A stretch of DNA of 64,000 nucleotides from Methanobacteriota archaeon (GCA_963787255.1 CAWBCJ010000029.1:32001-96000); one strand, 5' to 3'; counted from the stretch's first letter, positions 5,654-9,516 are shown. Notes: generated by a model not told the origin, from the letters alone. Made by a program: numbers and translations.

Positions 5654-6103
5654 GTGGTGGTTAGATTGAATGGTAATGCAGTAGAAATATTATTGGTTGA
5701 AGACAACCCTGCAGATGCGCGGCTGGTAAAGGAAGCTTTCAAACATTCTAAAATTAAAACTAAAATTTACGTGGCTGAAGACGGTTTTGAAGCCATGAAG
5801 TTTCTAAAAAATGAAGAAAGATACGCTGAAGAATCCAAACCAGATATTATTTTATTAGACCTAAATTTACCTCGTAAAGACGGGCGTGAAGTTTTAAAAG
5901 AGATTAAAGAGAATGAATATTTAAAGTTAATACCGGTAGTTATTTTAACAACTTCCCTTGCTGAAGAAGACATTATAAACACCTATAAAAACAATGCAAA
6001 CTGCTATATAACAAAACCTGTTGATTTAGACCAATTTATTAGTGTTATAAGATCAATACAGGACTTCTGGCTGAGTAAAGTTGAATTACCGGGCAATATG
6101 TGA
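5654..6103 (+). CDS. Single-domain response regulator receiver (Rcp1-like)
   Basis: ILLVED, LLDLNLP, VILTTS, YITKP; likely start TTG 5666. Confidence 0.92.
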
Positions 6104-6187
6104 ATATTATGATAATAATTTAAAATCTTACCATAAATATTTAATTTTGATTAATTTAAAAAGATTATATTTAAAAAAATAGTATAT

Positions 6188-6208
6188 AAAGCTGTAATTT
6201 ACAGCTTT
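6188..6208. terminator. Perfect inverted repeat at the 3' end of the Cys-rich gene
   Basis: AAAGCTGTAA-T-TTACAGCTTT abutting the stop codon, between convergent genes. Confidence 0.55.
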
Positions 6209-6720
6209 TAAGAAATTGCTTTTTTCAATTCTTCTAATTTTTGTTTACTAATTCTGTATTTTTTATTGTCCATTACTATTTCAATGTATTCTTCTTCTTC
6301 AAATTGCGCATTTACTTTCTGGACATTTTCCAATGGTTTTTGAACTGTCGGTTCTTTTGTAGGTATCAAATATAGTCCTCTGTGATCGTGAGATTTCCCA
6401 TGCGCTAAACAGTAATCTACATCACATTTTGTGCAGTACCATAGGCCTTCTGGACTGGTCCAGGATATTGAGCCTTGTTCGAATGTTAGTGTACCCTTTG
6501 AATGGCAGTTAGGACAATAGTTTTTATATACTTTTGTGTGATGTAGTCTATCAGTCATCAAACTGCAGCTACATACTCCTGTTGCTTTAACATATTCTTT
6601 TGTGACTTTAACATTATAAGCACCGATTCCATGTTCTGCTGCTGAAGATGGAGCCGCAAACATAAAAGCTGAAATTAAAAACAGCGCTAAAATCGTGCTA
6701 ACCTTAAGTAGTCTCTTAAT
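6208..6720 (-). CDS. Secreted Cys/His-rich protein, probable ATT start
   Basis: ORF extends in frame upstream of ATG 6663 as (I/M)KRLLKVSTILALFLISAFMFAAPSSA, a complete signal peptide; GAGGAGTG SD precedes ATT at 6720; CSC, CPNC, CTKC, C..HG..H motifs. Confidence 0.75.
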   Translation of the reverse strand: MKRLLKVSTILALFLISAFMFAAPSSAAEHGIGAYNVKVTKEYVKATGVCSCSLMTDRLHHTKVYKNYCPNCHSKGTLTFEQGSISWTSPEGLWYCTKCDVDYCLAHGKSHDHRGLYLIPTKEPTVQKPLENVQKVNAQFEEEEYIEIVMDNKKYRISKQKLEELKKAIS

Positions 6721-6800
6721 ATAATCACACTCCTCATTTTTTTGGTTCGGCTTTTTGACATTGCCACTAGGTTTTGGTAACCTTGAACCAGTTGGAGCAT
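6687..6800 (-). CDS. Putative 37-aa leader peptide (uORF) MLQLVQGYQNLVAMSKSRTKKMRSVIILRDYLRLARF
   Basis: Perfect GGAGGTG SD (6813-6807) 6 nt before ATG 6800; overlaps the downstream gene start out of frame; TAG at 6689-6687. Confidence 0.5.
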   Translation of the reverse strand: MLQLVQGYQNLVAMSKSRTKKMRSVIILRDYLRLARF

Positions 6801-6863
6801 AATTAACACCTCCGCATAAGACTAGTATTACTTTTTTATTATTTGTAATACTTTATATATAAA
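6722..6863 (-). promoter_or_regulatory. TATA box plus structured 5' leader sequestering the downstream SD
   Basis: TTTATATA at 6863-6856; helix 6805-6794/6733-6722 (12 bp, 3 G-U); inner helices 6790-6785/6748-6743 and 6783-6779/6773-6769. Confidence 0.5.
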
Positions 6864-7190
6864 TATTACGAAAAGTTACCGTGAAATTATGCAATTTTTC
6901 GGCCTAATTTTTATTATTAAAATTAGAAAACGGGAACTATAATGTAAATATTTTTTAATATATAAATTTTTCGCTTAAATAATAAATAATGTCATAAAAT
7001 CAATATTTATGAATAAATTAAGCTTAATAACACTTATTAAATAAAACAAGCTTTAAATATAATATATTATAACATAAAAAGCATAAATAGAAGTTTTTAA
7101 TAATTTAAAGGAAATAAATTAGAATAAGAACAAAAATAACAAATAAATTAGCTACAATAAAATAAAAATGCAATTAATGGAGAACTATAT

Positions 7191-7520
7191 TCAGTTTCCG
7201 CTTCCAATAATTATCCGACGTATTGGAACTTCCAGTATGGTGTATTTTTCCCCTTTAAGTGCTTCCTGGACTGATTTAACTATTCTATCAACCCTTTCTT
7301 CCTCTACAACACTACAAACAAGAATTGCATCCTTTGCGTGATCCCTTATCATTGCTATTGCTGATTTAGGATCCTCCTTAATGGAAAATCCTTTCCAATC
7401 CTGGGGAGACATTCCCTTATATTCTAGAATATAAAATCCAGTGATTCCAGCATCTGTCAAAGCATTCATTGCTTTTCCCAAATTTTCGATCTCAACAAAG
7501 ACCCTAAGATGAACCTTCAT
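7191..7520 (-). CDS. MJ1244 family protein (PII-like)
   Basis: 109 aa; [27 protein letters not shown] signature. Confidence 0.8.
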
Positions 7521-7626
7521 ATGACCAACCTCTAATACATTATATTAATCTCATATAGTATAATACTGATGATATATTAAAAAACATGTAATTAGTTAAA
7601 ATAGTAATTTTACAAATGGTGATCTA

Positions 7627-8700
7627 ATGAATTCAAATATCTGCATTAGGGATGCCTCTTTTTCTAATAAAAAGGACCACATTATCATTGAAAGAGAAAA
7701 AGGGCTATTATCTATAAGTAATTCAAATAATAATGGTTTTAGTGATATTAAAACAATAATAGTACATTCATTTAATGAAAATGATGAAAAAACGGATGAA
7801 GATCCTTATGAATATATAAATAAGTTTCTAGAAAATGAAAATCTAACTCTTCCTTCAGCTGTTATGCTAACAAGCGCAGATATTGAACATTATGTCATTG
7901 AAACATTAGATTATGTCACTGCGATAGTAACTGCCCATAATTCAAATTTGCATGGTGCTGGAGAACTACAAGAGAAAGGTAAAAAAAGTAACGTTGGATC
8001 CATAAATATCATACTGCTTGTAAATAAAGATTTAAATTACAAAGCCCTAATGCAAGCATATTCAAAAGCAGTAGAGGCCAAAACCTCCTCATTGTGGGAT
8101 TTAGATGTAAGAAGCGCTTCATGGGACCTTGCTTCTGGAAACAATGAAGATGCTTTGATAGTGGCTTGCACAGGAAAAAGTGATGAAGAAATTGATGATT
8201 CAGAACTTCAATATTTAGTTGGAAAGTGTGTGAGAAAAGCCTTAGGAAATGCAATGCTAAAAAGCGGTTTTTCAAAGAATGTTTTAGATTTTATTGAAGG
8301 TATTGGAATAAAAATAGATGATCTTGTAGAAGCAGGAATGAAACTCTGCGTTGGAGTGGAAATAAATGAAGAACTCCATGATAAAATCCAAGAGCAGATA
8401 TTAAAATCTCTGGGAGATTTAAACGTTGTATCATTCATAATCGCCGGAATACGGCTTGAAGAGGATTACATGAAACATCGTGTGGAAGGAGTTAACGTTG
8501 ATGATGATCCAGCTTATCTATATTCAGATGAGGTTTTTGGAATGTCAATAGCCAATCAAATTGCTGGAACAAAAGCAATATTCAATTTTAAAAGGTATGA
8601 CGAGGAAAAACCAGGTATAATCGGCGAACTTGGCCCTGTACTTGATGATGTTTTTGCAGGGCTTGTTGCTGGCTGCATGTCTAAAATTTTTGAGGAATAG
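7627..8700 (+). CDS. CbiZ-like domain fused to alpha-ribazole-phosphate phosphatase CobZ (CbiS-type fusion)
   Basis: N-part with GSINIILL and AVEAK (CbiZ-like); C-part with [40 protein letters not shown] (archaeal CobZ); upstream of cobS. Confidence 0.8.
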
Positions 8701-8703
8701 AAA

Positions 8704-9516
8704 ATGAGCGATAAGAAAGTATTTCACACTAAACAAAAAAAACAGTCTACCCCTACGATTAGAAAATTACCTAAAGTTAGTGGAATAGTCGGCCTCATCT
8801 CATTTTCTACAATTTTACCAATAAATATTCACACATCAATTGACGAAATGGCTGCCTTTACTTGGTTCTGGCCAATTATCGGGGGCTTAATTGGAATATT
8901 TGTAGGGGCAGTGGGATTTATAACTTTAAACATAATTCACTTACCCTCGTTAGTTTCAGCAGCATTGATTTACAGCTTTGCCATCTGGTTTACTGGTTTT
9001 CATCATCTTGACGGGCTAGTGGACATGGGTGACGGGCTGATGGTTCATGGAGATTATCAAAAAAAGATCGATGTTATGAGAGACATGATGGTGGGTACCG
9101 GAGGTATTTCCCTATTTTTTATAATTGCGATAATAACCTTTTCAGCAATTAACGCTATTCCTGCAGTTTTAATATTCGGGGTACTCCTAATTTCAGAAAT
9201 AGCTGCTAAAATAAGCCTCTTATCATGTGCAACCTTTTCTACACCATTATCTAATGGAACAGGTCAATATTTCATAAATTCAATGAACGTACCTTTATTA
9301 GCATTTTCGCTGGTTATAACCAGTATAATTGGATTTTTCGCGCTGAACCTGGCAGGAGTTTTAGGGATAGTTGGAGCACTAATTGGAGGTTATTTGGTGG
9401 CTGAAATAGCTAAAAAACATTTCAAATACGCTACAGGTGACATATTAGGTGCTTCAAATGAAATAGGACGAGCAGTATCGCTTATTGTAATAATTATTAG
9501 TTTAATATATTTATAA
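8704..9516 (+). CDS. cobS: Adenosylcobinamide-GDP ribazoletransferase (cobalamin synthase)
   Basis: TGFHHLDGLVD.GDG and TGDILGA motifs; multi-pass membrane protein. Confidence 0.93.
   Translation: MSDKKVFHTKQKKQSTPTIRKLPKVSGIVGLISFSTILPINIHTSIDEMAAFTWFWPIIGGLIGIFVGAVGFITLNIIHLPSLVSAALIYSFAIWFTGFHHLDGLVDMGDGLMVHGDYQKKIDVMRDMMVGTGGISLFFIIAIITFSAINAIPAVLIFGVLLISEIAAKISLLSCATFSTPLSNGTGQYFINSMNVPLLAFSLVITSIIGFFALNLAGVLGIVGALIGGYLVAEIAKKHFKYATGDILGASNEIGRAVSLIVIIISLIYL

Follow-up and report, generated by a model that had tools for sequence, protein, structure and literature searches.

A conserved leader with two ribosome-binding sites before an ATT-initiated secreted protein gene of Methanobacterium: a candidate translational switch

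The minus strand of a 64-kilobase stretch of DNA from the genus Methanobacterium (hereafter the window, whose numbering is used for all positions) carries a gene for a small secreted protein rich in Cys and His, preceded by a leader of about 100 nucleotides (nt). The leader contains two Shine-Dalgarno (SD) sequences: SD1 stands before the ATG of a short upstream open reading frame (uORF), and SD2 stands before the ATT that probably opens the gene. As listed in Table 1, the elements that an earlier note on this DNA had read at the locus are all present, namely the TATA box, SD1 (GGAGGTG) with its ATG and 37-codon frame, and a second SD upstream of the ATT. The earlier note had proposed a leader-peptide or riboswitch-like device. 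Comparison among related genomes upholds two parts of this proposal, the conserved helix that would sequester SD2 and the two conserved ribosome-binding sites (RBSs); the leader peptide itself is not conserved. The interpretation preferred here, tentatively and at somewhat below an even chance, is that the leader acts on translation by masking a weak RBS, and that ribosomes loading at the other RBS, further 5', would most likely open it.

A protein search covered 61 related genomes, with 22 others in the same genus. An orthologue of the window gene was found in 21 of these 22, and the same leader lies 5' of all 21 orthologues (L001, L004-L023). Its consensus is GGAGGTGTTAATTATGCTCCAnCTGGTTCAGGGGTACCTAACCCTAGTGGCA - variable linker - CTGrACCAAAA - GGAGTGTGATTAT ATT AAG. 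Searches with model R1 located the leader in 21 of the 23 genomes of the genus, as a single copy per genome and always 5' of the syntenic orthologue; the window's own genome has exactly one match. The two leader-free genomes are G021 (98% complete, the orthologue being missing too) and G012 (84% complete). In 137 genomes from 26 other genera of the family, R1 found no credible copy: three matches reached E 0.12-0.57 and 18-21 bits, whereas true copies score 86-120 bits. An exact 17-mer scan with R1 as filter yielded 10 further copies, seven of them new variants, among 59 stretches of metagenome DNA; from the genome-contig matches of the 17-mer, 17 of 60, those with archaeal titles, were passed to R1. 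A PII-like gene lies upstream at 20 of 21 loci and a convergent receiver-domain gene lies downstream at 19 of 21, so the orthology is positional. The mean pairwise identity is 94% in the 5' block of the leader (52 nt) and 83% in its 3' block; it is 69% in the promoter region, 67% in the signal-peptide codons, and 70% in the domain region of the gene. The leader is the best-conserved segment of the locus. Its near-invariance in 21 species, against flanks of 67-70%, shows that it is real and under strong selection.

Table 1. Features of the leader locus and its surroundings (window numbering)
Feature	Position	Strand	Basis or remark
TATA box TTTATATA (putative promoter)	6863-6856	-	sequence
Two GTAWTAC boxes: AGTATTAC (6852-6845) and GTAATACT (6831-6824)	6824..6852	-	between TATA box and SD1
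SD1 GGAGGTG, strong upstream RBS	6813-6807	-	sequence and conservation
uORF, ATG 6800 to TAG 6689-6687, 37 codons in the window genome	6687..6800	-	open reading frame reading
P1 5' strand TAATTATGCTCC; includes the uORF ATG and an anti-SD-like CUCC	6805-6794	-	pairs with 6733-6722
P2 5' strand TGGTTC	6785..6790	-	partner GAACCA 6748-6743
P3 hairpin AGGTT-ACCAA-AACCT	6769..6783	-	two compensatory double changes
Unpaired junction AGTGGCA, 3' of P3	6762..6768	-	invariance in alignment
P2 3' strand GAACCA	6743..6748	-	pairing and alignment
SD2 GAGGAG within GAGGAGTG (6735-6728), plus P1 3' strand GGAGTGTGATTA (6733-6722)	6722..6735	-	weak RBS of the gene, predicted to be masked
ATT start codon (candidate)	6718..6720	-	invariant in 28/28 leader-bearing loci
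Gene, 170-aa secreted Cys/His-rich protein; signal peptide about 6720-6637	6208..6720	-	translation
Hairpin AGCTGTAA/TTACAGCT, then T7; likely terminator	6173..6206	-	read from sequence by eye
PII-like protein (PF10126)	7191-7520	-	directly upstream, same orientation as the leader gene

The reading frame of the gene is open from 6852, just 3' of a stop codon at 6855-6853. Between this stop and ATG 6663, which is in frame with the ATT, there is no in-frame ATG, GTG or TTG. A complete signal peptide is obtained only from the ATT (MKRLLKVSTILALFLISAFMFAAPSSA/AEH), with a KR..K n-region, an h-region and SSA/AE; a start at 6663 would drop the n-region and most of the h-region. The earlier claim that the ATT is the only start to give a full signal peptide is therefore borne out by translation, and the codon is kept at 28 of 28 leader-bearing loci while the codons after it vary. 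In L006 and L008 a stop codon stands immediately 5' of the ATT. The GGAG of SD2 begins 13 nt before it. All named database copies of the protein are called 'hypothetical'. Among 11 public protein records, seven begin within or after the hydrophobic core, three begin at MECDY or MECGY, and one (P0029) begins past the signal peptide. This comparative evidence supports AUU as the real start candidate of the gene.

The use of ATT extends beyond this gene. The 24 small paralogue loci examined belong to several paralogue groups of the genus, to one further genus of the family and, in six cases, to a second family of the order. In 23 of the 24, GGAGG (or GGAG/GGGG) begins 12-14 nt before the signal-peptide-opening ATT, and L191 is ambiguous. 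Three multidomain relatives, one of which bears three pseudomurein-binding repeats, have ATG at the equivalent position. The paralogues with GGAGG-N7-ATT carry no leader. The loci of the second family (L027-L031 and L192, genus g16) read GGAGGCGGTAAA-ATT-AAG-CGA without the leader; they have a different 5' untranslated region of about 60 nt, in which two short inverted repeats, GAGG..CCTC and TCCAGA..TCTGGA, lie immediately 5' of the SD.

In the window's own genome, strong-SD sites were counted at the right distance from a candidate codon, with a match of at least 6/7 to GGAGGTG and an open reading frame of at least 100 codons. By an ad hoc rule of hydrophobicity and charge, which is not a trained predictor, a signal-peptide-like N-terminus follows 10 of 137 such sites at ATG, 10 of 53 at ATT, and 44 of 1223 at the other 55 codons pooled. 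The odds ratio of ATT against the pooled codons is 6.2 (p = 3.8e-5), and the comparison of ATT with ATG gives p = 0.03. Under a stricter GGAGG-N6-8 count, signal-like N-termini follow 12 of 155 ATG sites and 10 of 30 ATT sites. These SD-anchored, signal-peptide-filtered counts replaced a first genome-wide screen on the first candidate after a stop, which was undiscriminating (ATT 7, AAT 12, ATA 8 and TCA 7 sites). Among the genes of this genome (G000) with textbook signal peptides, many have ATT behind GGAGG(TG)-N7 and a few start with ATC or ATA; examples are C10:129156(+), C25:349087(+), C26:109462(-), C23:4968(-) and C29:425773(-). AUU initiation of exported proteins looks like a lineage-wide usage on these counts. 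The ATT is not a weak start special to this gene; it is typical of the whole protein family and common among the secreted proteins of the genome. What is peculiar to the window gene is the weak SD2 and its masking, not the ATT.

The upstream site is equally well preserved. In the 21 protein-found leaders, SD1 and its ATG (GGAGGTG-N6-ATG) are invariant except for an A>G change of SD1 in 2 of 21. The GGAGG of SD1 begins 13 nt before the ATG; this equals the SD2-ATT spacing and is near the 12 nt at the paralogue starts. The uORF opened there encodes a peptide of 8-49 amino acids (aa), and its stop lies between -78 and +64 relative to the ATT. At 11 of 28 loci it overlaps the gene, reading across SD2 and the ATT and stopping 31-64 nt inside; at the other 17 it stops 18-78 nt before the ATT. 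One-base indels in a G-run shift its frame (L023, L128). No conserved leader peptide or stall site was found across the 28 loci: only MLQ(L)VQG is common, in a stretch that is also constrained as RNA. Since uORF length, peptide and overlap are all unconserved, only initiation at the uORF and its first few codons could matter, if the uORF matters at all. The earlier description of a 37-aa uORF ending inside the gene thus holds for the window, with a conserved SD1 and ATG; neither this length nor the overlap is general. A translational bypass or frameshift that would join the uORF with the gene was considered and rejected by eye, as the uORF ends before the ATT at 17 loci.

The fold of the window leader, with a 12-base-pair (bp) helix P1 and inner helices, is both the minimum-energy and the centroid fold. 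P1 contains three G-U pairs, and 8 of its 12 pairs are A-U or G-U. As a single sequence the fold is moderately unusual. The 101-nt leader has a z score of -2.24, with 8 of 200 shuffles as stable; a 154-nt stretch has -1.21, with 24 of 200; and the scores range from -1.65 to -2.70 across the 5 leaders tested. Structure alignment A5 comprises 26 leaders (25 distinct), L013 and L171 being left out for their insertions of 50-100 nt. In the three-helix model 97.8% of the cells pair, compared with 97.4% in shuffles; controls with slid partners give 30-48%. P1 is 100% paired, and its 3' strand varies at three sites, all compatibly (U-A/U-G twice, G-U/G-C). The 5' strand is invariant in the 21 protein-found leaders although its partner varies, and this asymmetry indicates a second constraint on the 5' strand, such as initiation. 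P2 (8 bp) is 94.5% paired, with U-A/U-G (10 sequences) and C-G/U-G changes only. In P3 (4-5 bp) a G-C pair has been replaced twice independently by a compensatory double change, once by U-A (the window) and once by A-U (the metagenome locus L128); 3 of 500 shuffles did as well. P3 is thus supported by covariation, whereas the comparison supports P1 and P2 through conservation and compatible changes.

Equilibrium prediction was uniform over the unique leaders (27/27). The probability of P1 is at least 0.94, SD2 is unpaired with a probability of about 0, and SD1 is unpaired with 0.65-0.89. The sequence TAGTGGC is unpaired and invariant in 26 of 26 aligned leaders, and a linker of variable length follows it. 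In L013 (G003), L152/L088 and L171 an extra 50-100 nt, which include a 9-bp hairpin, are inserted between TAGTGGCA and the P2 3' strand; the leader core, judged by these variants, tolerates an extra stem at the linker junction.

The structural claims of the earlier note fared unequally. The 12-bp complementarity with three G-U pairs between the uORF-start segment and the SD2 region is present and is kept across the leaders. All three proposed inner helices can be drawn in the window; TGGTTC/GAACCA and AGGTT/AACCT are conserved, and GGC/GCC was rejected as a conserved part, being window-specific with an unconserved partner. Two alternative folds had also been proposed, in which the CUCC would pair with SD1 instead; this SD1:CUCC hairpin can be drawn on paper, and at equilibrium its probability does not exceed 0.02 in any of the 27 leaders. 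The note had looked to orthologous leaders for both SDs, uORF overlap and helix covariation. Both SDs are conserved and P3 covaries; P1 and P2 change compatibly on one side at a time, and the overlap is not conserved. A substitution of A by G in the GGAG was observed in both SD1 (column 5) and SD2 (column 88) in G001, G004 and mg145, in SD2 alone in G005, and in SD1 alone in mg151 and mg119 (alignments A2/A5). One and the same U of CUCC would be the pairing partner of both A's, and this parallel change is the sole hint for the idea of two folds. A pseudoknot between the P3 loop and UAGUGGCA, a T-box-like UGGN/NCCA pairing and a k-turn were rejected by eye; the pairings are not conserved.

These observations may be combined as follows. 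The region would be the 5' leader of the messenger RNA (mRNA) for an AUU-started, secreted Cys/His-rich protein, with two RBSs of like geometry. RBS1 would be strong, consisting of a 7-nt SD and AUG; it would lie near the 5' end, is predicted to be accessible, and would open a uORF of variable length. RBS2, the real one, would be weak (GGAG and AUU), with SD2 wholly paired in P1 to the uORF-start segment and its CUCC, which mimics an anti-SD. P1 would close a conserved core that comprises P2, P3 with its hairpin loop, and UAGUGGCA, the invariant junction. The mRNA alone would then be translationally off for the gene. A 30S or 70S ribosome at RBS1, reading the first uORF codons, would have to unwind P1 and P2 along their 5' strands; this would free SD2 and the AUU for a second initiation, which amounts to translational coupling by unmasking. 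Two expected elements were found: an upstream open reading frame with a functional-looking RBS, judged from the conservation of SD1-ATG, and a main RBS paired with the uORF region, SD2 being nearly always in P1. The leader as read contains no oligo-T run, so the control would be translational and not by termination. We infer that RBS1 would be used, that P1 would form in vivo, and that uORF translation would activate rather than repress.

Several points weigh against the coupling interpretation. The predicted fold rests on limited covariation: among the 21 genus sequences alone, covariation of the structure is not above that of shuffles, and no double compensatory change was found in P1 or P2 among the 25 distinct leaders. 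The metagenome copies were retrieved by a 17-mer from the P1 5' strand, so that invariance there is built in. Ribosomes translating a long uORF across SD2 and the AUU (11 of 28 loci) could equally occlude the main start. A purely ribosome-driven model gives no role to the P3 loop or to UAGUGGCA, which is unpaired and invariant. In 11 of the 21 species an in-frame ATG five codons 5' of the ATT, which sits atop SD2 and itself lacks an SD, might replace the ATT as the start. Metatranscriptome contigs cover 6182-6502 (X18), 6564-6742 (X19) and 6548-6698 (X20), placing a close relative's gene in RNA libraries; they stop at 6742, leave 6743-6863 uncovered, show no ends, and possibly reflect DNA carry-over.

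The strongest alternative is a riboswitch-like or protein-binding sensor. P2, P3, UAGUGGCA and an optional linker stem P4 would form a pocket for a small molecule, a metal ion or a protein; binding would stabilise or destabilise P1 and set the access to SD2 and the AUU, with SD1 and its AUG secondary. Invariant unpaired bases beside change-tolerant helices are the usual anatomy of an aptamer, as is a linker of varying length with inserted hairpins, seen here in L013 and L171. P3 covaries, P1 is predicted to act as an SD-sequestering expression platform, and the Cys/His-rich product makes a metal signal conceivable. However, known riboswitch classes usually govern several genes of one pathway, and this leader occurs once per genome, before one gene in one genus; searches with R1 found no recurrence before several functionally linked genes. 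A cmscan of 6000-7600 on both strands against the 4227 families of Rfam 15 gave, at E<=10, three noise matches of 13-19 bits, against gathering thresholds of 82-90. The neighbouring genes (PII-like, receiver domain, LarC) offer no ligand clue, no functional link to the PII-like gene is evident, and the perfect, invariant RBS1 is left unexplained. A sensor is therefore considered possible and rather unlikely. The invariant junction favours a binding partner and the invariant RBS1 favours the ribosome; both may hold.

P1 might also be a constitutive damper or an RNA thermometer, which keeps the weak AUU start very low and is opened by temperature or general unwinding without a specific trigger. 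The composition of P1, with one half rich in A-U and G-U pairs and with three conserved G-U pairs, would suit this, and the leaderless use of GGAGG-N7-ATT by the paralogues would mean that the leader only adds repression. An ATT start is reported to reduce the expression of the pilus protein EbpA in E. faecalis (PMC4447247). Nevertheless, the 94% conservation of 52 nt, P2 and P3, the junction and the strong RBS1 would all be superfluous in a damper, and a G-U pair is strengthened to G-C in three lineages. Methanobacterium is mesophilic, and the gene has no heat-shock link; both count against a thermometer. This explanation is decidedly unlikely.

Occupancy of RBS1 might instead repress the gene, through ribosomes that sit at this decoy site or that cross SD2 and the AUU in the species with long uORFs. 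The overlapping uORFs would allow such occlusion, and ribosome-mediated occlusion by upstream RBSs is reported in bacteria (PMC13285730). RBS1, however, lies 80 nt from the ATT, which is too distant for direct steric occlusion; the uORF stops short of the ATT at most loci (17/28), and P1 is given no role. Repression of this kind is very unlikely. It is highly improbable that the protein starts at ATG 6663 (or, in other species, at the in-frame ATG 5' of the ATT) or that the gene is decaying, with the leader kept for an unrelated, for example DNA-level, reason: gene callers do begin the database copies at an internal Met or at MECDY, but a start at 6663 would truncate a textbook signal peptide, the ATT is invariant amid varying codons and directly follows stops in L006 and L008, nearly all small paralogue loci have SD-N7-ATT where the multidomain relatives have ATG, and ATT is enriched 6-fold among signal-like N-termini genome-wide.

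The product of the gene has invariant Cys, His and Asp positions, and no family of Pfam or NCBIfam matched it above the cut-off. Its AlphaFold2 (AF2) model has a predicted local distance difference test score (pLDDT) of 74. In VIA-align the top 45 rows were all Rieske-type; the best, 5cxm_A, has Z 7.4, a value middling for this tool, with a root-mean-square deviation of 3.0 A over 73 aligned residues. Foldseek of the same model returned nothing at E<=0.001, the best E being 0.047. The motifs CPNCH and CLAHG differ from the canonical Rieske CxH...CxxH pair. The resemblance of the model to Rieske-type domains is consistent but weak. In L025, from another family of the order, the Cys/His-rich domain is fused to three pseudomurein-binding repeats, and such fusions in relatives suggest a link with the cell wall. 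In some paralogues the two CxxC motifs have been lost together, which suggests that these may form an optional zinc ribbon. The likely terminator 3' of the gene would make the gene monocistronic. Elsewhere in the window, an open reading frame at 7627-8700 (+) encodes both a CbiZ domain (adenosylcobinamide amidohydrolase) and, at the C-terminus, a PgpA-like one; it adjoins CobS (8704-9516).

Upstream of the leader, a TTTATA-type box lies 38-50 nt 5' of SD1 at 24 of 28 loci. The pair of GTAWTAC boxes is kept in most orthologous promoters, with a gap of 13 nt or 3-5 nt. At most loci the boxes stand as an inverted repeat; in L007, L010 and L011 they have the same orientation and form a direct repeat. 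They might be a possible operator or repressor site, or a 5'-end element. Their reading as a covarying RNA hairpin was rejected; the motif is itself palindromic, which makes compensation trivial, and three loci have the direct repeat.

Bacteria are known to have leaders that mask an SD, coupling through uORFs, and starts at ATT; for their combination, no Rfam family and no paper was found. A full-text literature search, in which subscription journals were not covered, returned nothing on methanogens with ATT starts or with a leader of this type. This agrees with the earlier view that the element is not a described archaeal cis-element. To our knowledge, cis-acting translational control is scarcely documented in archaea, where few riboswitch classes are known, and no uORF-coupled switch is known in methanogens. 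The leader might represent an archaeal translational switch of a new class, be it an orphan riboswitch or a ribosome-licensed start, which would be the first described in a methanogen; it would gate one member of an AUU-initiated secretome. A claim of this breadth is unlikely to hold. If it did, AUU initiation would be a dedicated and tunable channel for exported proteins and not the oddity of a single gene. The leader is a compact, testable candidate, with two RBSs of equal geometry, one predicted to mask the other, near base-perfect in 21 species. ATT starts also cause gene callers to truncate or miss signal peptides, which skews secretome and cell-wall predictions for Methanobacteriales. 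A lineage-wide preference of exported proteins for AUU, if confirmed, would raise questions about archaeal start-codon choice and about the fidelity of aIF1 and aIF2.

Among known systems, the fourU and ROSE RNA thermometers hide an SD in a helix with many A-U and G-U pairs. P1 resembles them in this composition and in its predicted masking of an SD; unlike them, it belongs to a 100-nt leader with several helices and an upstream RBS, and no stress gene follows. SD-sequestering translational riboswitches share more features with the leader: the SD lies in the closing helix P1, the junction is conserved, a peripheral stem is variable, and a uORF lies in the leader. The atypical B12 riboswitches of M. 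tuberculosis are said to act together with uORF translation. The leader differs from the SD-sequestering riboswitches in matching none of the 4227 Rfam families and in its restriction to one gene per genome in one genus.

Unmasking and leader-peptide control are exemplified by ermC-type translational attenuation and by the coat-dependent opening of downstream starts in MS2. With coupling and attenuation systems the leader shares a strong upstream RBS with a short open reading frame, and a start region paired with the SD of the real gene. As in coupling systems, such as the coupling of upstream RBSs and uORFs in bacteria (PMC13285730), ribosome occupancy upstream is proposed here to open the downstream RBS. 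It is unlike them in its archaeal host, its AUU main start, the absence of a predicted alternative helix, and its extra conserved core of P2, P3 and the junction, which is without counterpart. It is unlike attenuation systems in lacking a conserved leader peptide or stall motif, as the variable peptide lengths and the frameshifting indels indicate.

Other AUU-initiated genes include infC and pcnB of E. coli. The ebpA gene of E. faecalis is likewise ATT-initiated (PMC4447247). The window gene resembles such genes in several respects: a conserved ATT stands behind an SD, no canonical start is usable, annotation truncates the secreted protein at a downstream ATG, and the ATT is expected to reduce output. 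Unlike in the known cases, there is no link to the autoregulation of an initiation factor. In contrast to ebpA, infC and pcnB, the ATT is kept across a paralogous family and a second family of the order, and it occurs frequently among the secreted proteins of this genome.

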